A DNA stretch of 61,749 nt, counting the filler, from Globobulimina sp. (lineage: Eukaryota): NCBI GenBank assembly GCA_003354225.1. It is 27 parts of 27 records of this genome, joined end to end, with 100 filler letters (N's around TTAATTAATTAA, not from the genome) between each part and the next. Parts side by side here need not be neighbours in the genome. Positions count along the whole stretch, not along the records: positions 57,272 to 59,460 come from PIVH01008312.1; 26 more parts are not named here. One strand, given 5' to 3'. Of the stretch, positions 7,121-60,767 are shown in pieces. The notes below the pieces were generated by a model. That model was not told the origin of the DNA, made no database searches, and saw only the letters and a program-made list of their open reading frames with translations. Position numbers and translations under genes: made by a program. How positions within the stretch are numbered: the first letter of the stretch is position 1; the number at the start of each line of letters is the position of its first letter.

Positions 7121-8092
7121 TGCTATTGTGGGGCAATTAAAGAGAGAACTGGGAAGACGGTATACTGGTCAATTGATGGTGGTCTACAGGCTCTAGCTAA
7201 AGTGCAAAGAATGGGGAACAGATTACAGAGTGTGCAAACTGCGGACTTCAGCACATTATTTAAAAGTTTTGATCATACAGTTATCAAACAGCAAATTTTC
7301 AAATTATTTGATATGTGTATGCGTAATTCTGGGAAAGCATATGTAGTGGAAGGGAAGCGCAATTTATATTATTCGTCAGCACGGGTGGAGGACTATCTTT
7401 CATTGGAATCAACGGAAATTAAAGAACTAATATCCTATATCATTGATGAAACTTATGTTAAATTTGGACCCTGGATGTTTAGACAAACTTGCGGTGTACC
7501 CATGGGAGGAAATGCATCCCCTACCTTGGCGGACCTTACTCTCAGCATGCTGGAATACAATTTCCTATCCAAAAAAGAGAATCAGCAGGTTGCCAGACGC
7601 ATGGGGAATACAGTACGATATATTGATGATATATTAACTATGAATTTTGAGGATCTAATGGATGTAGCTGCACAGATTTATCCTCCCTCATTGCCTTTGG
7701 AAATTACATCCGCTAATTTTGGTAAATGTGATTTTTTGGACATGACTATTACATGTGGTAATAATGCATATATTGCTGTATATAATAAAACGGATGACTT
7801 CAACTTCAATGTTATTAGATATTTATTCGCTGACAGTAATGTTCATAGTAATTTGGGGCTACAGGTTTATCAATCTCAATTGCTTCGTTTTCTCAGGATT
7901 AGTAATCGCTTGAATAATCTTATTAGCAGAAATAGGGAATTGTTTTTCAGTTTGGTTTCCAATGGTTTTAACAGATTTGATTTGATTAATTGCTCATTTA
8001 AATTCTATGAACGACATAAAATGGAAATACTCAAATTTGGTCTAACAGATAATAAAGAGATAGCACGTTTTATCTGCACTTTTACAAATTAA
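7121..8092 (+). CDS. Reverse transcriptase (C-terminal part) of a Penelope-like element, Naiad/Chlamys-like
   Basis: Frame open from 7121: YCGAIKERTGKTVYWSID, ADFSTLF, QTCGVPMGGNASP, RYIDD, IYPPSL, FLD, YNKTDDFNF, SNVH..VYQSQLLRF; no C-terminal GIY-YIG domain. Confidence 0.88.
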   Translation, partial: CYCGAIKERTGKTVYWSIDGGLQALAKVQRMGNRLQSVQTADFSTLFKSFDHTVIKQQIFKLFDMCMRNSGKAYVVEGKRNLYYSSARVEDYLSLESTEIKELISYIIDETYVKFGPWMFRQTCGVPMGGNASPTLADLTLSMLEYNFLSKKENQQVARRMGNTVRYIDDILTMNFEDLMDVAAQIYPPSLPLEITSANFGKCDFLDMTITCGNNAYIAVYNKTDDFNFNVIRYLFADSNVHSNLGLQVYQSQLLRFLRISNRLNNLISRNRELFFSLVSNGFNRFDLINCSFKFYERHKMEILKFGLTDNKEIARFICTFTN

Positions 8093-10546: not shown

Positions 10547-11362
10547 TTATTTCTTTCTATGAGGTTGACCACTGAAATGACACCCAGGACATTGATAAAT
10601 CGATTCTTTCTCCCAAATTATATATGTACCCATCAAACAATGTTGGTCCTCTGGGGTCATTTTCACCGGTAATGTTGTCCAGTTCCTACCATGATCTTTG
10701 AATGCTGTGACCACTGAATTAACTAAATTTAAAATTTTGTTATGCATTTCAAACTTATTTCTCCAATGTTTCTGATGGTCAATTCCTTTATTATCAGACT
10801 CGGCAGATGAGGACACTTTGATGATTTTCTGCAATAGTATATGGCTCAATTCTTGTTCTCCTACATTACCATGATCCAATTGTCTTCCATCCAATGCATC
10901 AAATAATTCTTGCACTCCGTGACACTCTGACCAGTCTGAACCCAAAATAAGCGGGGGGAGATGTACATCGTCAGCAACAACATGTACTATTTGCCAAAAT
11001 TCAAGATTACCTAAACTCAGCAGCATGTAAATTTCGCCTAAAATTGGAATATTCTTTCCATAATTAGACATCGTTTTGTGTTCACATGGATGTAATTGTG
11101 AAGGGGTACCACCGCCATATTCACAGACAGAAAGTTGCATGATAGTATGTGCTATTTTTGTGTCAACACATGCTGCTACAGTGCAAACAGGGGCATAATT
11201 ATATAGGTCTTCCCTTCTATGCAACAGTATACTTACTTCCTTTGCTTGTGGATGACTGTCTGCCTGTTGATATTCTATGGTAATGGGCACTGCAGTAACT
11301 GTAGGACTGTACAATGTGCTGTTAGGTACCTGTTCGGGTGACTCACAAATAGTGTATTCTGC
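10547..11362 (-). mobile_element. Retropepsin-like ORF of LTR-retrotransposon origin with degenerate active site, 5' partial
   Basis: AACVDTK...QIVHVVADDVHLPPLILGSDW aligns with AALADTG...QTVHVVPDDSRLPLVILGTDF in 27503-29693. Confidence 0.7.
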
Positions 11363-11462
11363 NNNNNNNNNNNNNNNNNNNNNNNNNNNNNNNNNNNNNN
11401 NNNNNNTTAATTAATTAANNNNNNNNNNNNNNNNNNNNNNNNNNNNNNNNNNNNNNNNNNNN

Positions 11463-12974
11463 AAAGACAAAGACGCAGATGACCCAGATATAGAAGTACT
11501 AGATAAAGAAACAGGACAATTCGAACCTGATGTAGATGATACAAATATACAAAATATAAATGAACAAAATAGACAATTATTAAGTGCTACTTCATCTCAT
11601 AGTGATGATTTAAGTGGAGAATATGATGTTTTCAGAAAACCAACAGATTGGGAAGTCAGCAGTAGAAGAAGATCTCGAGGTATGAGAAGAGGTGGAAGAG
11701 GTAGATATACTAGAGGAAATGATAGAGCATCACCTCCTTTCTCATTACCTACAGATGATAAACACCCGAGATCTTCATCAAGAGATAGATTAGAAACTGA
11801 AAAACCTGCATATTCATTTATAAATAGAGGTGGACACCAAGTAAATTGGTCTGCAGCTAGAATGTTTGGTCTTAATACAAAAAGGAAATCCTTACACGGA
11901 TCATCAGATAGTATATTTTCAGGCGATGAACATAAAGTTCAAAAAGTTATGAGTCCATTAGAAATGTTTGAAAGTGCTAAAAATAAATGCAAAAAAATCC
12001 CCTATAAAAGGGAATTTAATGAAGACTTTCAATATCATAATCAGACCTTTGCAGATATAACAACTTATTATAAACAAACAGATATACATGCTGATAAATG
12101 TAAAAATATAGATGGAGCAGATACAAAAGGAATACGTACTATTCCGATACCATTAGAAAAAATGGCAGAACGAATAAATATAAATAAATTTGGACAAAGA
12201 TATGACACAAGATCTACATTTAAAATGCCAGGCAATTTAAAAGTATCTGTGATAGGAGACTCAACCATTTATGGGGTAGAATATTTCTTAGATATAACAG
12301 CTAAAGAACCAGAAGTTCAACAGAATGTACACTATTTAGGAATGAAAACTTCAGGAAGTGCATTAATAAGCTGTAGACTTAGACAAATGGCACCCGTTAT
12401 CCCAGCATTAACAATGAGAGACGAGGATGTCATAGTAATAAAATGTATTTTAGATATAGCAGATATTGTTGATACATATTATGCAGCAGGTATGATCGAA
12501 AATTCTTGGATACCATTTGCAGATGAACTTTTAGCAGATATTAGCAAAATTTGTCATAATATAAATGGAATACACAAAAATGTATTGATGCTTGTAAATT
12601 TAACTGCACCAATACTATCAAATAAAAATTATATGTCAGATATTAATGATCCAGGATTTTTGACAATAATTCAAAAAATAGAAAATTATTTGGCACGTAA
12701 AGTAGATGATCTAGCCAAACAGTTCAAAATTCCGATTAGATATATTATGCTACATTCAGCCATAGCAGAACAGACATATAAATTAAAAAATGAAGCTGAA
12801 AAAGAAACTAATGAATCAATTACAGTAGAAAATGCATTAAGTAAATTTGTATCAGGTATTAAATTGACAAGAAATGGAAACAAGGTTTTGGCCAATGAAA
12901 TGTTTAGAGAAATGGTCACTGGTTGGATCAAATTTGTCAATGAGAAAATTTTAACCGGAAATCCGGGAAACTAG
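11463..12974 (+). CDS. Non-LTR retrotransposon ORF1 with SGNH/GDSL esterase-like domain, 5' partial
   Basis: VSVIGDS block I, SGIKLTRNGNKVLA block V-like; frame open to contig edge; 14 bp upstream of the APE ORF. Confidence 0.65.
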   Translation, partial: KDKDADDPDIEVLDKETGQFEPDVDDTNIQNINEQNRQLLSATSSHSDDLSGEYDVFRKPTDWEVSSRRRSRGMRRGGRGRYTRGNDRASPPFSLPTDDKHPRSSSRDRLETEKPAYSFINRGGHQVNWSAARMFGLNTKRKSLHGSSDSIFSGDEHKVQKVMSPLEMFESAKNKCKKIPYKREFNEDFQYHNQTFADITTYYKQTDIHADKCKNIDGADTKGIRTIPIPLEKMAERININKFGQRYDTRSTFKMPGNLKVSVIGDSTIYGVEYFLDITAKEPEVQQNVHYLGMKTSGSALISCRLRQMAPVIPALTMRDEDVIVIKCILDIADIVDTYYAAGMIENSWIPFADELLADISKICHNINGIHKNVLMLVNLTAPILSNKNYMSDINDPGFLTIIQKIENYLARKVDDLAKQFKIPIRYIMLHSAIAEQTYKLKNEAEKETNESITVENALSKFVSGIKLTRNGNKVLANEMFREMVTGWIKFVNEKILTGNPGN

Positions 12975-12988
12975 ACAAGGTCAGTACA

Positions 12989-13654
12989 ATGCCTAGTTTT
13001 CACAATAATCCTAAATTTAATAATTTTACTATTCCAGATTATCAGAAATCAAAAAATCCACAAAGATGGTATTCAGGAAAAAGATCTAAAGATAAGAAAT
13101 TATATTTGGATCAAAATATTGATATATTATATAACAATGTATTATCTATGAATTCAAAAATTGATATTATATATGAACATTTAAAAGAAATAAAATTAGA
13201 TATTATATGTTGTGTTGAAACAAGATATAAAAATGTATTAGACACTCATAAAATACATGGATACGAAAGCTTTCATAAGATGCAAGTAGATAATAAAACA
13301 GGAGGGATTAGTGTATGGGCTAAAGTAGATTCCAAACCTACTAGACTAGATATTGATGACATGGATGATGAGATAAGTACAAATTATCTATGGATATTAT
13401 GTCAAAATAAAAATATGACAGCTGTATGTACAGTGTATCTAAGACATCAAGGAGCAAAAAATGCGCTAGATACCAATATAAAAATCTGTCAAAGACTTGC
13501 AAATCATATTAATTGGTGCAAAATTAGAAATTATAATATTATAATAGTTGGAGATTTTAACGGTCACATTGGCAATGATGATTTGGGTATCATTGGCAAT
13601 CATGATCCGATAAACGACAATGGACATATTATTAGAAATTTTACCAAAGAGTCA
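12989..13654 (+). CDS. Non-LTR retrotransposon ORF2, APE endonuclease domain, 3' partial
   Basis: ILYNNV, DIICCVET, GGISVW, IIVGDFNGHIG. Confidence 0.85.
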
Positions 13655-13754
13655 NNNNNNNNNNNNNNNNNNNNNNNNNNNNNNNNNNNNNNNNNNNNTT
13701 AATTAATTAANNNNNNNNNNNNNNNNNNNNNNNNNNNNNNNNNNNNNNNNNNNN

Positions 13755-19546: not shown

Positions 19547-19927
19547 CCATGCCCTAGACACTAAAACCCTATCTATGCTTTCAGCTAACACCCGATCTCC
19601 AATCTTGACCATTAGAATGAACTTTTTTGTCTCCAATCCTTTATTAATACTATTTCCTGTTATATATAACCTTTTCTTTTTTCAAACTTATATTTGGTTT
19701 CTGAAAATGTTCATCCCTTTTAAACTCCGTGTGTTTTTCCTTTTTTTGATTACTAACACACCTTTTGATCTATATACATGTTTAACTTTAAATTTATCTT
19801 TGCCACGTTCCATGTTGTATATTAACCCGACGAATATCTTATATTCCATTATGCCTTCAGCAAATTTTTTCGGATTCAGTTTGTTAAATTATGGTAAGAA
19901 AACTCTTGAGTCGCCGTTTTCCCCGTT

Positions 19928-20529
19928 TTGAGAATTGGCCAAATCAATATTCGTGGATTACAGGATGCAAACCGATCCTTCCACAAACAGAAACAAATTG
20001 AAATATTGCTGCGTAAATATAATTTAGATATTTTATTATTACAAGAATTAGTGGTTACAGCCAGAGCAGACATTAAGAATCAATACTATTACGACAAAAA
20101 CGATAATTATCATAAATTCAGAGTCACCGAAAACAGATTCGATCGTTATAAATTTTGGGCACCGAAAACGGAATGTGGCATTATCTACAGAGATAATTTA
20201 GAAGTGACAAGATTGAATGAGTTCATCCCCGTATCACAATGCAGAGAAACGAATATAGCAATATGTGGAATCCTTATCCACACTAAACACAAACCGATTG
20301 CCGTTTATTCTTATTATCGCCCGCCAAAATATGGTGAAGCCACACAATTATTCCAATTTAAATTTGAAGGTGAAAAAGTTATCCTTGGAGGTGATCTGAA
20401 TCTCCACCACGAAATGTGGGGGAGTAAAAAGCATAATAAAGCCTCAAAGGACTTTGTAACCCTTCTGTCTCATTCGGAGTTCCAAGTAATTAATTCAAAA
20501 ACACCAACCCGATGTGACCCATCCAACCA
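19928..20529 (+). CDS. Non-LTR retrotransposon ORF2 APE endonuclease (I/Jockey/R1-like), 3' partial
   Basis: RIGQINIRG, DILLLQE, VYSYYRPP, GGDLNLHHEMWGS, PTR. Confidence 0.85.
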
Positions 20530-20629
20530 NNNNNNNNNNNNNNNNNNNNNNNNNNNNNNNNNNNNNNNNNNNNTTAATTAATTAANNNNNNNNNNNNNNN
20601 NNNNNNNNNNNNNNNNNNNNNNNNNNNNN

Positions 20630-27402: not shown

Positions 27403-27502
27403 NNNNNNNNNNNNNNNNNNNNNNNNNNNNNNNNNNNNNNNNNNNNTTAATTAATTAANNNNNNNNNNNNNNNNNNNNNNNNNNNNNNNNNNNNNNNNNN
27501 NN

Positions 27503-29693
27503 TCTGCTTTTGTTTCTTCTTCTCATGTCTATTCTTTGCTCCATTCTTGATCCGGTCGATATTGTTCTGATCCCTTGGTGATAAATGATCAGATTCATCA
27601 TCACTGTCTTCTTCGTTCTGCTGAAGTCCCGGCATCTCTGGCCATGCTGCTGCATAACTAGCAGATGTGCATTTAGCACGTGGTCGTCCCAATAGTTGTT
27701 TTTGACCATACAGAGTCATTGTAGAATCCGCAAAATCGAAACCAACTTGATGACATTGCAAAAAATCTGTACCCAAGATAACCAAGGGTAGACGAGAATC
27801 GTCTGGCACCACATGTACAGTTTGTTCAAAAATTTTATCACCGATGGCAAAAGACATAACAACTTTGCCCAAAATATCAATAGAACCCCCAAAACCGGCC
27901 ATTTTTTTATGATGACAACTACGCAATTCGGACATAGGAATGCGGGCAAATTTACATACAGCTTTTTGTGCGATAGTCAATCCAGAGCCGGTGTCGGCCA
28001 ATGCTGCTAATTTGCATACTGGAACACGCTTCCGAAGTAAATAAAGCGCTAACTCCATTGGTTGTAATACAATAACAGAGTTATTATCAACATCTCCTTC
28101 AGGCACAGCGGTCAACACTTTAGCATTTATAGTATCTTCATTTAACCGATTTGGCCGCACTACACATGGCTCTGGTACTGGGGAAACAAGTTTATGGGTC
28201 ACCCAATCATTGTTGGTAGACTCAACTACTTCGGGCAATACAGATCGATTATTTTGCATCATGGTTGATTCAGATGCTAAGGGTGCATGTACCCATACAG
28301 GTTGATTATTGATAGTCTTACACCGTTTGTTCTCATATATACTACTTTCAGTGTCTGTCTGTATGTCACCCATTGCACCCATACATTCGCCAGTCATTTG
28401 TTTATAGCACAACCCAAAATTATCAATTGGTTTAATTACATCATTTACTGTGCTAGGCGTACCCGGTTCTACTTTAGGTGTTTCCATAAACTCTTTCTCG
28501 AGTCTTGCCACCGTTTCGTTATGATTATGTATTTGTATTTGTGTCAACATTAATGCTACCTCAATTTTATGTTTCTCATACCTTTCGTCCTCTTTGCGTG
28601 ATTTTTCACTCCAAAATGTCCAGTTGTCATAATCAAATTTCAAATCAGGGTAATCTGAATTTGGTATCAAATTGGGTCCAAATGTAGGCAGATTATCCCA
28701 ATTTTCAATTGGATATGAACGTCCTGTCTCGATGGCAAATTGATGTAAGTAATCGGTATATATCATTGGTCCTTGTCCTTTACCACCTTCGCAGTCTATT
28801 AGATTCCATTGAATTCTGGCAATTTCTTCTTTTGTTTTAGCCAATTTTTTTCCACTTTCTTTCACTACTGTACCAACATATGAACTTGACCACGCTGATC
28901 GTCTCCTTGGTTGTTGCTGACTTGATTGTGGTTGATCTACACTACGATTCTGATTTTCGGGACAGTCTGGACGCCAATGTCCTGTTTTATGACATGTATG
29001 ACATACATACCCGGCTCCTGGCGGTCCTCTGGCTCGTGAAGAGTTTCTATTGTTATTGTATAGTCGACTTCCACTATTTCTGGATCGGTAACGTTGATTG
29101 TCCTTGGCTGCTTGTTGTACTGAGTCGCCCATATTCAGTGTAATTCGCAAAATTCGTTCTTTTTCCACTTGGCAGATTTCTTTGTCATACACATTTGGAA
29201 AGTATGTCATTGTTTGCATACCCAAATACCTGGCTGCATTACCTAAACTACCATCCAAACAGTACGAAACAACAGTGTAAACGTCACCTTTACTCAGAGG
29301 TTTCAATCGTGCCACTAAATCCTGTGCTGTCACTGGATGTCCTGCTCTGGCGTTGTCCCATACAAACTTAACTATTTTCCTGGCCACTTCCGACGCAATG
29401 AGTTTGAAGTCCTTGTCTGACTTGAAAACCGTTGGTGATTTTGAATCCTCTGTTATGGAGAATTGTTCCTTCATTGGCGCGGCTGTGTCAACACTGACTG
29501 GAAAAAGAGAATGTGATTCGTATGCAATAGTATTATCTTCAACAACAGCACGAATGCCCACTGGTCGTCTCGATGTGGCAATGGGAAGGTCCGGACTTGT
29601 CTGTACTGTGTTTGTAATTCGCTTGGCCATACAAGTCCAATTCGGTTTGTCCATTCCAGATAAATATTGTTGACACGTTTTGAGATCTTCTCT
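27503..29693 (-). mobile_element. LTR retrotransposon gag-protease polyprotein, open at both contig ends
   Basis: CHTCHKTGHWRPDC knuckle, ALADTGS active site, ILGTDF. Confidence 0.85.
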
Positions 29694-29942
29694 NNNNNNN
29701 NNNNNNNNNNNNNNNNNNNNNNNNNNNNNNNNNNNNNTTAATTAATTAANNNNNNNNNNNNNNNNNNNNNNNNNNNNNNNNNNNNNNNNNNNNCGTCATC
29801 ACAAAAAAATTGACAAATTGACAACAACTTTTTCCTTTTTAAATTATATTTAGAATGATGCGTTTGTAGTACCATCAGTTTACTTAATTTAGCAGTTTTT
29901 AAACTCCTAAAAAAACAGCTTAGTTCCCACATATCCGTTAGT

Positions 29943-55352: not shown

Positions 55353-55833
55353 TGACGTCGTAAAAAGTCCGCTCTCCTGCTCGCTCTTCATAATTTCTTA
55401 ATGTCCAGGCTGTATGATCAACCATTTGGACATTGTAAGCAATCTTTAGGCAGTTGTATTTTGCTACGTACTAACCCTGGTGAACAGGAAGAGAGCCAGG
55501 ATAAGTACCTTGGTGGTATGTGCAACCAAGGAGTTTCAAAATATAATCCTCGTTTTCTTGTTTTTTTTGCCAGAAGATGGGGAGTAAGGTACTAATGTAT
55601 TCAGTAAAACACACCACAACAAGGCGTGTAACCGAAAATGGATTATTGCTTACCTCTACAACAAATGCTCCTATATATTTGGCATTACGTTTTATAAACT
55701 TAATCAAACAAATCGTGAAAAACTTCAGTAAACTCGTTTTAAAGGTGCCTCAATGAAAGAGATTGCATACACAACACACGGACAACAAGTAACAATATTA
55801 TACGGTGGGTCAATTTACAACCGGAGCTTATTC

Positions 55834-57171
55834 ATGAAGCGGAAAATGATCTTATCGATATTGTTTTCTATGCTGCTGGGTACTTTTTCGGTTGCTAATT
55901 CTACAGTCCAAGCTGTCACTTTTACTTGTACAGCAAGCCGCACAAGTGGCGTTGCTCCTTTAGGCGTTTTTTTTAATAGTGGTTTTTCTGAAAACACCAC
56001 ATCTGATAATCCGTTTCACGAATTGGAATATTCATGGAATTTCGGGGATACTGCCAGCGATTACTGGGCCATTGAAGAAGATTCTGTTTCCAAGAGATCA
56101 AAAAATATCGACAAGGGACCTGTTGCAGCACACGTTTTTGAAACCCCCGGAACCTATACTGTGACACTAAGAGTTCGAGATGAAACTGGAGTGATTGCCA
56201 CGGAACAATTATCAATTACAGTTGAAGATCCAAATTCGGTTTACAGCGGTACTGATACTATTTGTGTTGCTGATTTAGCTTCAAACGATTTTACAGATTG
56301 CCCAAGCAATGCAAACCAAGTTGCTACAAACGATATCACTAACGTTCAGGACCACCTCGGTGCAAATAAGCGGATACTTTTAAGACGAGGTTCCGCGTGG
56401 GTTGTTTCGGATGCAGGTATTTTAAGAGATGTACAAAATTTTGACCGTGTGACTATAGGCGCTTACGGGGATTGTACAAATCCTGACAGTCGCGGCATTT
56501 GTGATAATGCGCCAGAAATTGCGATTACCGGCAGCGGATATTTTTTAGCTTATAATTCTACTTCGGACTGGCGTGTGCAGGATATTAGTTTTATCGGAAG
56601 CACCAGCGCTACTATTATTAGCGGAGCAACAGATGCCGAGTCTTTGCTCGCATTACGGTTGAAGAGTACAGGGTTAGGTGTTCCAATTGCTTTTAGCGAC
56701 TATCTTACAAATGGACATGATCAACTTATGCTTGTTGATTGTGATTTCTCCAATTCTGCTGGGAATATCTTTTTTATAGGTTCGGAGCGTTTGGTTTTGA
56801 TGGGAAATTACCTGAGAAATGCTGGACACCATGTTATTCGAATTTGGCAGGCTTATTTAGGGGTGATCAGTCATAATAATGTATCCGGATCAAGTAACAC
56901 TGCTCCTGGCCTTCATGCGCTCAAGTTTCACGGCAAGGCCGAAAATGGCATATCAACTACCGATGATGACTTAGTGGATCATCGTTCTGAGTACGTAGTG
57001 ATCTCAGACAATATTTTTGGGAGTTCAGGTCCATGGCCAGTGGCGGTCGGCCCACAGAATACAGATAACGATGAGCGCCTTAGTAATATTATCATAGAAA
57101 AAAACCGGTTTATTGCAGGGTATGGTCAACAGAATCCTTCTGCAGTACAAGTACTTCTACTTATCTGGGCC
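55834..57171 (+). CDS. Secreted bacterial PKD-domain plus right-handed beta-helix protein, 3' partial
   Basis: GGAG RBS at 55823, signal peptide MKRKMILS, SGVAPLGVFF, YSWNFGD, HVFETPGTYTVTL, Asn-ladder repeats. Confidence 0.85.
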
Positions 57172-57777
57172 NNNNNNNNNNNNNNNNNNNNNNNNNNNNN
57201 NNNNNNNNNNNNNNNTTAATTAATTAANNNNNNNNNNNNNNNNNNNNNNNNNNNNNNNNNNNNNNNNNNNNAATCTACAGAAGTATGTAAAAAAAAAAGA
57301 AAAAAATCTGCAAAAAAACAGTGCGGTTCGGACAAGTTTTCGAATTTAGGAATTTAGGATTTAACTATTTATCGCAGTTCTAGAAGGTACAATGTATACG
57401 AAAATAAAAAAAACACAAAAAAATATATAAGAATTTAGGAATATATAAAAATATGTATATAAATTTTCAACAAAAAAAATAAACAATGACAGAACCCATT
57501 TTTCTCGGCTCTGACATATGTATCGCAGTGCTGATATTTACGTCAATTTGTTATGTGGTTGAGAGCTGATATATTTATCCTAATTTCCAAACGAGGACAA
57601 TTAAACAAATGGAAAAAATGCCAAAACTTTATAAACAAAATGATTTTTTCCGTTTGTTTTCAGAGGTCAACCAAATACTAATTCCCGTAAATATAAAGCT
57701 AGTGTATACAATACATATCGGTTCAATTTTATTTTAAAATTGACGCTAACATAAAATAAAAATCGCGGCGTCGAACG

Positions 57778-59057
57778 TTATAACTGATCCACTAAAAAAT
57801 CGACGTTGGCAGAATTATGCAACTCGCAAATATTTCGCACAAATTGGCTCCAATGATTTTTAATGATCAATCTCCTTATTTCCATCTCAACGTTTTTAAA
57901 ATAGCCAATTGAGATTTGTGAGGTCATCCAAGTTTGGTTTAATTTTTTGAATGAATCTAATAAATCCGTCCGTGTCTCGTAAGAAATGTTTATAGCAAAC
58001 TCACCATTCGAACAAATACATTTTTTAATCACTTCTTTAGCGACAATATAGCGCTGTTTATCACCGCTCTGATTCTTGAATTTCTTCATTAACTCCAAAT
58101 ACACAGTCAATTCGGAGCAGAAATTCTGATGCAAAAAACTGTAAAAATATTCACGACCAATATCAGACAATAAACATTCTTCCAATGAGTGCAAAAATGC
58201 TGTGTTCACTCCATGAAATCCTCTCGTTCGAGTACCGGTATTAAAGGATTTTCTCTTCGAATGGTTGCTGTTCTCAATGTTTTCTCCCATCATTATTCTC
58301 GCCGATAAGGTGATAATCTCTTCCATTGCATATTGTACCTGTTTTATTTTGTATATTGCTCTGTATTTATGTTGAAAACACCAAAGTTATTTTGTCTTAA
58401 CATTGATGTTGTATTGTTTCGGGAAATAAAAAGTCATCGTTTCGTGTATCGCTTGTTGCATAAAATGAAAATAGTTTGTCGTTATACCCATTGTCTGATG
58501 TAATGCGCCTAATTGTGCCAATAATGAATATGCGTCGACGTTGGTATTGGTGATGGTTCTTAACAGCCATCCAATCATTTCAATGTATTTTAAACTCGTT
58601 GTTTCTAATTTGGTATTCGATGATAAATTACGTTTCCGCACTTTTCTCATTGCCTCTTTGTTTGCTGACAACATTGAAAAATATATTGAACAGCCAATTT
58701 CCTGTTGATTTATAACCAAATATAGCAACAAAAATCGACATAGTTATTATGTGTACATGTACAAATTTTGGGTATATGTACCAATTTGTCTTCAGTTCTC
58801 ATGGACTGTATGTTTTGAAACCAAAATGTCGTAGCAACTAAAACCAGTCTTTCGGACAGATATTTACCAATAACACCATTATGTGCACCGTCATGATCAA
58901 CTGTATCATGCGCCGACGGTGTTACTGGTACTATTTCTTCTTCTTTTGCATTACAGCTTGTTAGCGTTGTTGACCGCGCACTGATTGTCCTCCCAGATAT
59001 CAAGGAAAATGGGTCAAACGTTTCGATGCTAGCGCTGCTGCCATGTTCGTTACCCAT
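57778..59057 (-). CDS. Globin-RGS fusion protein, 3 exons (introns 58702-58781 and 58339-58401)
   Basis: GT-AG splicing joins three ORFs in frame; globin LAQLGALHQTMGI; RGS GREYFYSFL..NFCSEL, AINISYETR, HWSQF; MG N-terminus. Confidence 0.85.
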
Positions 59058-59128
59058 GGAAAAGAAATGTTTGTTGGTTATATATAACCTTAAAAAACTT
59101 CACTAAACAACATCCCAAATCCGCCAGC

Positions 59129-59460
59129 ATGAGCGAGCAGCAAACTGCTTTGTTGAGCAATTCAAATGGCACCAGCCACTATGATACATCCATTGTAGTT
59201 ACAACTCCGAATGATGATAAAGTAAACATTGACGAAGAAACGCAACACAGAATCAGACGGTTGAGTTCAATGCTATATGAAGAAATGGACACAGACGACC
59301 CATTAAAGGTAGATTTGAACGAAAGTGAATGGTTAACCTGCTGTAACAAGAAAATCAAAATCTCACTAACTGCAGCAACTATATTCGGCGCCTTTGTGGG
59401 TGGCATTATCGGCACAGTGCTCAGTTTATATGGACATATGACCGAGACCTGGTATAAAAT
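59129..59460 (+). CDS. Probable dicarboxylate/amino acid:cation symporter (SLC1-like) N-terminus
   Basis: LTAATIFGAFVGGIIG resembles TM1; only a short fragment is visible. Confidence 0.45.
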
Positions 59461-59635: not shown

Positions 59636-60496
59636 TTACAAACCAGCAGTCTCGCCGGGAGCATGAACAATTTCCATCTCCACGCCGTCGATGATATGCG
59701 TAGTTTGGTTTGGATCTAATAATTTCGTCGGCATATGCATAGACTTTCGGAATTGAGGGTGATGTAACAAAAACGGCCCAATTCCAGAATTCTCAAAAAC
59801 ATTCGAAAACCCGTTAGAATTATCTGAAATATACGTATTATTGCCCAGTTTATAAAGATTGGATCGCCACTCAGCAGAGGCACTGTTATTAGTGATACTG
59901 CTGTCAATGTCATGATGTTCGTAATGTGTCTGGTCATATTCATGCAACAACGGACCAAACTGCCGAATCCCGCGTATATTGGAAATAGCGGACGAAATGG
60001 AAAGTACTCGACTCATTCCTTTCATTGTCCGTCGATGGGAGATGATGGTCGGAAAGAAGTTCGTCTCTGCATCTATCCAGGCACCAGAACCAAACGTGTG
60101 GTCCGGATGATAATGTGTGTATATTATGGTACCCACTGGTTTGCTGTGAATGGATGGATGAGTCATTGCAATAAAATCATTGCGAACCTGCTGTGACGAC
60201 TCTACAGATTCTAATGTGTCTACGATTGTTAACGTGGTGTCACATTCAATGATTATGCTATTAGCCAATGCGTAGCCAATTGCTACATAAACACCATCTG
60301 TTACACGTAATATTTCCGCTTTAGAAAATTGAGAACTATGTGCTTTTAGTTTTTCGTGCACTTGTTGTGGTGGTAAATAACTATTATGGATGATATTATT
60401 TAATGAGGAATTGAAGTGTGCTACGCGTTTTTCTCTGATGAAATACACAATTACTGCTAGTAATATTGCTATTGTCGTGTTCTTGGGGTCTAACAT
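59636..60496 (-). CDS. Alkyl/aryl sulfatase (SdsA-like metallo-beta-lactamase fold), first exon
   Basis: VTDGVYVAIGYALANS, IVDTLES, YTHYHPDH, HAPGET. Confidence 0.88.
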   Translation of the reverse strand: MLDPKNTTIAILLAVIVYFIREKRVAHFNSSLNNIIHNSYLPPQQVHEKLKAHSSQFSKAEILRVTDGVYVAIGYALANSIIIECDTTLTIVDTLESVESSQQVRNDFIAMTHPSIHSKPVGTIIYTHYHPDHTFGSGAWIDAETNFFPTIISHRRTMKGMSRVLSISSAISNIRGIRQFGPLLHEYDQTHYEHHDIDSSITNNSASAEWRSNLYKLGNNTYISDNSNGFSNVFENSGIGPFLLHHPQFRKSMHMPTKLLDPNQTTHIIDGVEMEIVHAPGETAGL

Positions 60497-60767
60497 TCTG
60501 CAAATGATGGTATGTTATTTAGGGATGGTTGGGATGAATGTAGACGAGATGGTGTTTGGTTAAGAAAAAGAGGATGAAAATTTCATTATTCTTACTACTA
60601 ACTAATATTAATGAAAAAACTTTTTTCAAATCAATTTCCCATAATAATCTGGCTGTTAATCTGGGCATTTTATTCTATTTTTACAATATTGAATTATCAA
60701 AGCATACAGCTGTAACAGCGGAGATATGATTATGTAATTCATATAATTAGCTATTTATAATTAATTA

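Follow-up and report, generated by a model that had tools for sequence, protein, structure and literature searches.

Does a single gene in Globobulimina sp. join a globin to a regulator of G-protein signalling (RGS) domain, and if it does, what might such a protein do? The question is raised by a locus on the minus strand at 57778..59057 of a 61,749-nucleotide stretch of joined DNA from assembly GCA_003354225.1, which we call the window. In bacteria, sensors in which a haem-binding globin is coupled to a signalling output are well known. Among eukaryotes, globins with a defined role in signalling are few, and we know of none joined to a regulator of G-protein signalling. We find that the locus is a real, expressed globin-RGS fusion gene, and we hold this conclusion with very high confidence.

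Gene structure and splicing

Translation and spliced contigs divide the coding region (57778..59057) into three exons with 378 codons and a TAA stop, all on the minus strand, as are the other features of this gene given below. The joined coding sequence is 1137 nt long and translates to 378 aa with one stop, which is terminal. Exon 1, as read from the translation (58782..59057; 92 codons, aa 1-92, MGNEHGS...EDKL), starts with ATG at 59057..59055 and a Gly2 codon at 59054..59052, and it encodes a myristoylation-type start, a linker of ~55 aa with low conservation, and then globin helix A with Phe78-Trp79. Exon 2 (58402..58701; 100 codons, aa 93-192, EIGCSIYFSML..QYNIN) encodes globin helices B to G, and exon 3 (57778..58338; 186 codons plus the stop, aa 193-378) supplies the last globin helix, H, followed by a short linker and then the RGS domain. 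The contig joints place an 80-nt intron 1 at 58702..58781 and a 63-nt intron 2 at 58339..58401, both GT..AG and both in phase 0. The globin domain spans approximately aa 66-212 (58279..58862, placed from residues 54-200 of the model of the homologue P0006 through the BLAST register) and is split by both introns, and the RGS domain spans about aa 243-361 (57832..58188, placed from the Pfam match on exon-3 residues 51-169 and from the RGS fold in the homologue model).

Contigs from three runs belonging to three studies (X5, X6 and X7) omit exactly 63 and 80 bases, and the ends of the skipped segments read CT..AC on the plus strand, which is GT..AG on the gene strand. The X5 contigs are at least 99% like the window, and those of X6 and X7 are 90-95% like it. 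Read depth over intron 1 is zero in all three runs, and we read them as RNA because the excision is exact at GT..AG. The unspliced genomic form is seen in run X1, where record 1 reads into intron 2 and intron 1 is retained in record 2. Both joints are bridged by record 19 of X6 (657 nt) and by record 22 of X7 (780 nt), each running from the RGS region into exon 1, so the globin and RGS domains share one transcript. The original prediction, made from the genomic sequence, had proposed two GT-AG introns of 80 and 63 nt, with RNA-seq as the check on splicing, and had named separate transcripts for the two domains as an outcome that would count against a fusion. The contigs reproduce both introns to the base, and they place the two domains on the same molecule.

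Three full-length homologues (355-409 aa), found by an exon 3 search among longer proteins, are colinear with the window protein across both joints, where they read EDKLEI(G/A)CS and QYNI(D/Q)(V/T)QY(A/S)M. Two of them are from EukProt and the third is the open reading frame (ORF) of a complete MMETSP transcript.

The alternative at this level is an artefact, either two separate genes or a chance frame joined through imagined introns. In its favour, the carrier contig spans only ~2.2 kb, in an assembly made of short pieces strung together. However, one contig in each of two studies crosses both joints, GT..AG removal is exact in three runs, and 43 homologues are colinear over both domains. In addition, between the window and the X6 and X7 contigs, 26 of the 34 changed codons among the differences listed, a list short of 18 more, are synonymous, which points to purifying selection across the whole gene. 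On the strength of the contig joints and the colinear two-domain homologues we reject the artefact reading, which we consider extremely improbable.

Domains and folds

Exon 2 matches the Pfam family Globin (PF00042) at 30.5 bits, above the curated cut-off of 22 (E 5.6e-7), and exon 3 matches RGS (PF00615) at 36.1 bits, above the cut-off of 23.9 (E 9.9e-9). No Pfam family matched exon 1. Among 145 family sequences, fragments included, Globin is matched by 43 and RGS by 79 at E<=0.001. The motifs that had been pointed out beforehand are all present in the translation: FW in helix A, LAQLGALH with His160, SLEECL, GREYF, AINISYETR and HWSQF. Pfam, the homologues, a fold model and the contigs agree with the proposal that an MGNEHGS start, a globin and an RGS domain stand on one protein.

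The fold model is that of the homologue P0006 (355 aa), which is 50% identical to the window protein over residues 60-374 and was modelled by AlphaFold from the 145-row family alignment (A2). Its predicted local distance difference test score (pLDDT) is 86.3, falling below 50 for residues 1-29 only, and its predicted template modelling score (pTM) is 0.74. The original prediction had suggested structure prediction as a check, and the model of this homologue has a globin fold followed by an RGS fold. In VIA-align, the globin part superposes with Z 17.4 and a root mean square deviation (rmsd) of 1.9-2.0 A over 131-133 residues, the figures for Hell's Gate globin I (3s1i) being Z 17.4 and 2.0 A over 131 residues. 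The aligned stretch, model residues 54-200, covers haemoglobin alpha chains from end to end as well as 3s1i, so that we regard the domain as a full 3-on-3 globin running from helix A to helix H, and not as part of one. Foldseek gave the globin fold a target template modelling (TM) score of 0.85 against 3s1i and about 0.7 against neuroglobin and myoglobin. For the RGS part, target TM was 0.76-0.88 and rmsd 1.7-3.9 A to RGS16, RGS8, RGS4, RGS1 and RGS3. A look-up of P0006 in the ESM Atlas returned no usable match.

When the family profile was compared with PDB sequences, the best globin matches were of the Hell's Gate globin I type, labelled 'hemoglobin-like flavoprotein' (3s1i, E 7e-19; 3ubc, E 4e-18), followed by the Roadblock-fused 3wfw (2e-15), plant non-symbiotic haemoglobins (2e-9) and neuroglobin (5e-8). 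The Protoglobin family (PF11563) matched no window exon even at E<=10, and it matched 6 of the 145 family sequences at E<=0.001. These relatives, together with the missing Protoglobin match, assign the domain to a myoglobin-like, flavohaemoglobin-related lineage and not to the sensor-globin lineage. On the RGS side, the same profile matched RGS18, RGS2 and RGS1 at about 1e-16 and axin at 1.6e-9. Exon 3 alone matched only RGS12 among PDB sequences (E 0.0012); the family profile was needed for this comparison.

Family and hosts

We compared 1.84 billion representative proteins with a profile (A1) made from the three homologues and the window exons. Matches numbered 256 at E<=0.001; tighter thresholds left 147 at E<=1e-10 and 67 at E<=1e-30, and many run as a single stretch over both domains. 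The spliced window protein itself is 54.5% identical to P0004 over residues 23-375 (E 1.9e-145), and its closest relatives are foraminiferal. Organism names were attached to 22 of 30 looked-up representatives and all 22 are foraminiferal (10 from Nonionella stella, 8 from Bolivina argentea, 2 from Elphidium margaritaceum, and 1 each from Ammonia sp. and Reticulomyxa filosa); the other 8 are metagenome, Logan, MERC or MMETSP records. Clustered at 50% identity, the family has at least 8 clusters in Bolivina argentea and at least 10 in Nonionella stella.

The R. filosa member (ETO32836.1, X6P3R6) is titled only 'RGS domain-containing protein', and Pfam detects RGS alone in it. As with this paralogue, public records conceal the globin-RGS architecture. 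The original prediction knew of no characterised globin-RGS protein, and our search of full-text literature agrees, with neither a globin-RGS fusion nor a description of a foraminiferal globin found in a search that left outside it the protist globin censuses in subscription journals, the Reticulomyxa genome paper and supplements. This is apparently a large, undescribed foraminiferal globin-RGS family whose sequences are public but unannotated or half annotated.

Some relatives carry membrane segments. Four EukProt proteins of 708-908 aa (P0093, P0158, P0062 and P0160) have 6-7 hydrophobic segments within residues 1-273, followed by RGS at about 300-490 and globin at about 570-810, and in P0158 Pfam detects both RGS and Globin. 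In P0021 and P0144, several hydrophobic segments precede the globin-RGS unit. No Pfam membrane family matched the membrane-RGS-globin relatives even at E<=10, and a model of P0158 from a 6-sequence alignment (pLDDT 49.8) was too poor to call a seven-transmembrane (7TM) fold. From their layout, the four look like receptor-like membrane-RGS-globin proteins. The presence of RGS and globin behind membrane segments suggests that this family's globin is repeatedly tied to G-protein-type signalling at membranes.

Proposed mechanism

We propose that the window protein could be a membrane-tethered haem sensor that tunes the GTPase-activating protein (GAP) action of the RGS domain to which it is fused, and we put the chance that this mechanism holds as a whole at about even. 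An N-terminal myristate would tether the 378-aa protein to the inner face of the membrane. A flexible stretch of ~55 residues leads into a complete 3-on-3 globin with a proximal His160, which a short linker joins to an R4-like RGS domain that retains Asn309. A change in what the haem binds or in its oxidation state (O2, nitric oxide (NO) or redox) would alter the globin domain, and the altered globin would change how well GTP hydrolysis on a G-alpha at the membrane is accelerated by the neighbouring RGS domain. We infer that the protein is myristoylated and binds haem, and likewise the ligand's identity, the GAP activity and the inter-domain coupling; a gas or redox sensor that gates G-protein signalling we consider plausible. 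The rhizarian Bigelowiella natans is credited with more than 30 G-alpha subunits, and R. filosa with genes of the G-protein-coupled receptor type in a highly fragmented assembly (PMC5784254).

Haem pocket

Pocket columns were read from the alignment to 3s1i, and counts from here on are over 44 sequences, the window protein and the 43 two-domain members, which are the proteins aligned to it from residue <=90 to >=350. The proximal F8 column is His160 in the window (codon 58500..58498), with His in 40 sequences and Tyr in 4. The B10 column is Tyr99 (F 20, Y 16 and L 5 in the family) and the E11 column is Tyr131 (F 17, Y 11, L 8). The distal pocket had been described as atypical from the sequence, and the alignment bears this out, with Thr127 in the E7 column (L 11, T 6, Q 4, V 4 and others) and Arg114 in the CD1 column (codon 58636..58638; F 14, L 13 and M 9 in the family). 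Elsewhere in the globin, F78 is kept in 44/44 sequences, W79 in 40/44, G157 in 43/44, H178 in 36/44, Y189 in 43/44 and M208 in 40/44. The kept proximal His and the hydrophobic or aromatic B10, E11 and G-helix columns form the pattern expected under selection for haem binding, and we lean towards the view that the window copy binds haem.

It could be argued instead that the globin fold works without haem as a second G-alpha-binding module, which would make the protein a two-handed regulator combining GAP action with action like that of guanine nucleotide dissociation inhibitors (GDIs), with no gas sensing. RGS12 and RGS14, which carry GoLoco in addition to RGS, are a model for such a regulator. 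In its favour, the window protein has polar residues, Arg114 and Gln174 (codon 174, 58456..58458), where the other family members are hydrophobic, and Tyr replaces the proximal His in four members. Human ferric neuroglobin is also described as a GDI for G-alpha-i/o that binds GDP-bound G-alpha-i (PMC4842972), a precedent for a globin acting on G-alpha. However, the GDI activity of neuroglobin is itself dependent on the haem state, being that of the ferric form (PMC4842972), and the 40/44 count for the proximal His and the family-wide hydrophobic or aromatic pocket columns also argue against the haem-free regulator, which we consider rather improbable.

RGS domain

Asn309 (codon 57990..57988) falls on the Asn of EVNLD in the RGS18 alpha5-alpha6 loop, and 36/44 sequences keep it. 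The SEEN columns of RGS18 hold Cys266 (C in 41/44), Ser267 (variable), Glu268 (E in 39/44) and Leu269 (I/L/M), and the Asp column of EQDSY in RGS18 is Asn353 in the window protein (35/44). The Arg column of the last helix pair, which belongs to the G-alpha pocket, is variable in the family, and W355 is kept in 43/44 members. We take the aligned columns to correspond to Ser85, Glu87, Asn88, Asn128 and Asp163 of RGS4, in which Asn128 contacts switch II. In this alignment the family retains the Asn that contacts switch II and also the Glu, but its switch-I pocket is not canonical.

These deviations bear on a further alternative, that the C-terminal domain is an RGS-homology domain of the type found in axin, sorting nexins, AKAP10 and G-protein-coupled receptor kinases (GRKs), which would not act on G-alpha and would serve another pathway. 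The contact columns that are Ser, Asn and Asp in the R4 type are Cys, Leu/Ile and Asn in this family, and axin is among the profile matches (E 1.6e-9). The best sequence and fold matches are nevertheless true GAPs (RGS18, RGS2, RGS1, RGS16, RGS8 and RGS4), and both the alpha5-alpha6 loop Asn (36/44) and the SEEN Glu (39/44) are conserved. In addition, RGS2, which is an active Gq-directed GAP, has Cys in the first of the deviating columns and Asn in the last. We give this alternative little weight and favour, with some reserve, a window RGS domain that acts on a G-alpha.

Two cysteines of the RGS domain are near-invariant: Cys247 (codon 58176..58174), which is kept in 44/44 sequences, and Cys266 (codon 58119..58117; 41/44), which stands at the column of the G-alpha-contacting Ser of the R4 type. 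Control through redox state, S-nitrosylation or acylation might act on them.

Probable membrane anchoring and possible joint use of the domains

The MGNEHGS start fits the N-myristoyltransferase rule, which calls for a Met-Gly start, a small residue in position 6 and anything but Pro in position 7. An MG start is found in 30/44 two-domain members, and position 6 is S/T/A/G/C/N in 23 of these 30. Five of the 14 non-MG members have an internal MG(N/H)xxx, possibly the true start, as at residue 20 of P0004. In 7 of the 30 MG-start members there is a Cys within residues 3-8 that could be a palmitoylation site. The window protein has no hydrophobic segment by Kyte-Doolittle analysis. From the motif, the protein is probably held on the inner face of the membrane by an N-terminal myristate.

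His160 and Asn309 are both kept in 36/44 members. The four members with Tyr at F8 (P0057, P0061, P0125, which is R. filosa RFI_04280, and P0132) all lack the RGS Asn, having K, D, E and D respectively in the Asn309 column, and one possibility is a subfamily in which both activities were lost in concert. Since the four may form one subclade, the co-loss is only a hint of joint use and not independent evidence of coupling.

This bears on whether the globin senses at all. The protein could be a working membrane globin, active in NO dioxygenation, nitrite reduction or superoxide generation, whose RGS domain mainly targets it to G-alpha or receptor complexes. Its closest solved relatives are the flavohaemoglobin-lineage single-domain globins, plant non-symbiotic haemoglobins and neuroglobin, not sensor globins, and Protoglobin does not match the window exons even at E<=10. 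N-myristoylated globins with redox roles are known in globin X and in GLB-12 of C. elegans, and the named hosts include nitrate-respiring foraminifera of anoxic sediment, both of which count for this alternative. On the other side, globin and RGS domain are conserved to the same degree, the protein lacks a reductase partner domain, and the joint retention of the two key residues, with 4/4 His-less members also Asn-less, suggests joint use. We consider a working globin of this kind fairly unlikely and continue to prefer the haem sensor acting through its fused RGS domain.

Several points nevertheless weigh against our interpretation. For the runs with the spliced form the recorded kind is '?' or 'RNA? 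(a guess)', no run on record as RNA being listed for the stretch, and the fold evidence comes from the model of a homologue, P0006, instead of the window protein. With Cys-Ser-Glu-Leu at the SEEN columns and Asn for Asp, the G-alpha pocket is not canonical. The window protein lacks the canonical distal pocket, in which E7 is His or Gln and CD1 is Phe; these residues differ from one true globin to another, so their absence is compatible with membership of the globins. Arg114 is the sole Arg in the CD1 column among the 44 sequences, in a register that is uncertain by one residue near 114 because of a one-residue insertion. Similarly, Gln174 is the sole Gln at a pocket-facing G-helix column that is Leu in 34/44 sequences. 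Codon 174 is ATA (Ile) in the 90-95%-alike contigs through a two-base change, and X5 agrees with the window, a pattern that indicates a real and recent change to Gln. The two substitutions count against haem binding in this copy, and they may represent a recent shift of ligand chemistry, or lost haem binding in this lineage.

Genomic setting

The window consists of 27 short, near-equal pieces. It contains 26 copies of TTAATTAATTAA inside runs of N at a spacing of ~2290 bases (at 2238, 4531, ... 57216, 59505), and 0.14 copies of TTAATTAATTAA would be expected by chance. Because the window is made of joined pieces, genes on different pieces are not true neighbours, and the genuine genomic context of the globin-RGS gene is only about 57262..59460, its contig of ~2.2 kb.

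Outside the fusion gene, this contig holds the start of a divergent neighbour on the plus strand (59129..59460, MSEQQTALL.., with one hydrophobic segment), which is truncated by the contig end. No Pfam family scored above its cut-off for the fragment up to that end. The ATGs of the two genes are separated by 71 bases (59058..59128), so a very short bidirectional promoter may be common to both. Long contigs of runs X5 and X7 extend over the divergent neighbour and leave the stretch there.

Other pieces carry long open frames that resemble parts of retroelements by eye, at 7121..8092, 12944..13702 and 19910..20581, and further such frames at 27447..29741 and 10547..11410. Judged in the same way, they suggest a reverse transcriptase, an endonuclease and a gag/protease-like product with a CCHC knuckle. 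On the adjoining pieces, and unlinked to the globin-RGS gene, are an intron-free ORF with PKD domains (55732..57174, plus strand; E 3.8e-10) and another such ORF with a metallo-beta-lactamase fold domain (59636..60514, minus strand; E 5.9e-8).

Significance

The novelty would lie in a protein of the haem-globin sensor type that, as read from its sequence, has a new eukaryote-type output, a different globin lineage and a lipid-anchor motif. A conserved, expressed and expanded globin-RGS family would give a direct link from oxygen, NO or redox state to G-protein signalling.

Foraminifera are noted for life without oxygen and for nitrate respiration. More speculatively, they might have a large lineage-specific set of membrane-bound haem sensors that feed O2, NO or redox state into heterotrimeric G-protein signalling, a proposal that we offer tentatively and regard as doubtful on present evidence. 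Such a set would work by two routes, one through the myristoylated globin-RGS proteins and the other through the receptor-like proteins with 6-7 membrane segments, RGS and globin. If it exists, it could underlie the sensing of O2 and nitrogen oxides by which foraminifera control migration, dormancy and the switch to nitrate respiration in oxygen-poor sediment.

Comparison with known systems

One close parallel in architecture is with the globin-coupled sensors of bacteria and archaea, such as HemAT, DosC/YddV and AfGcHK. Like them, the window protein has an N-terminal globin and a C-terminal signalling output on one chain, with an output that we propose is controlled by the haem ligand. Their globins are protoglobin-like and their outputs are methyl-accepting chemotaxis protein (MCP), GGDEF or kinase domains, whereas here the globin is flavohaemoglobin-related, the output is a eukaryote-type RGS domain, and there is a myristoylation motif. 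In the strict sense of the class, the window protein has the one-chain globin and output and lacks the sensor-lineage globin.

With Hell's Gate globin I and related globins (3s1i, 3ubc, 3wfw) the window protein shares the proximal His and a Tyr in the B10 column. Globins of that type are bacterial, free-standing or Roadblock-fused, and have Gln at E7 and Phe at CD1, in contrast to the Thr, the Arg and the RGS domain found here. The likeness to R4-type RGS domains consists of the Pfam RGS match, the fold (TM 0.76-0.88), and the kept SEEN Glu and alpha5-alpha6 Asn; the family differs from them in Cys for Ser, Leu/Ile for the SEEN Asn, and Asn for the Asp of the last helix pair. We know of no animal RGS protein that carries a globin.

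Among animal globins, vertebrate globin X and GLB-12 and GLB-26 of C. elegans are N-acylated membrane globins, and GLB-33 is a 7TM-globin. They resemble the foraminiferal proteins in placing a globin at the membrane, through an MG.. start or a receptor-like fusion, and in their proposed signalling or redox roles. Unlike the window protein, they are animal proteins without an RGS domain.

Neuroglobin, which is among the profile and fold matches of this family, is a parallel in proposed function, being described as a globin whose haem state controls its action on G-alpha (PMC4842972). Neuroglobin is a single-domain protein that acts as a GDI in trans, whereas here a GAP-type domain, known from its sequence, is fused in cis. 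The case for globin action on G-alpha has so far rested mainly on neuroglobin, and the globin-RGS family would be a natural fusion in support of it.

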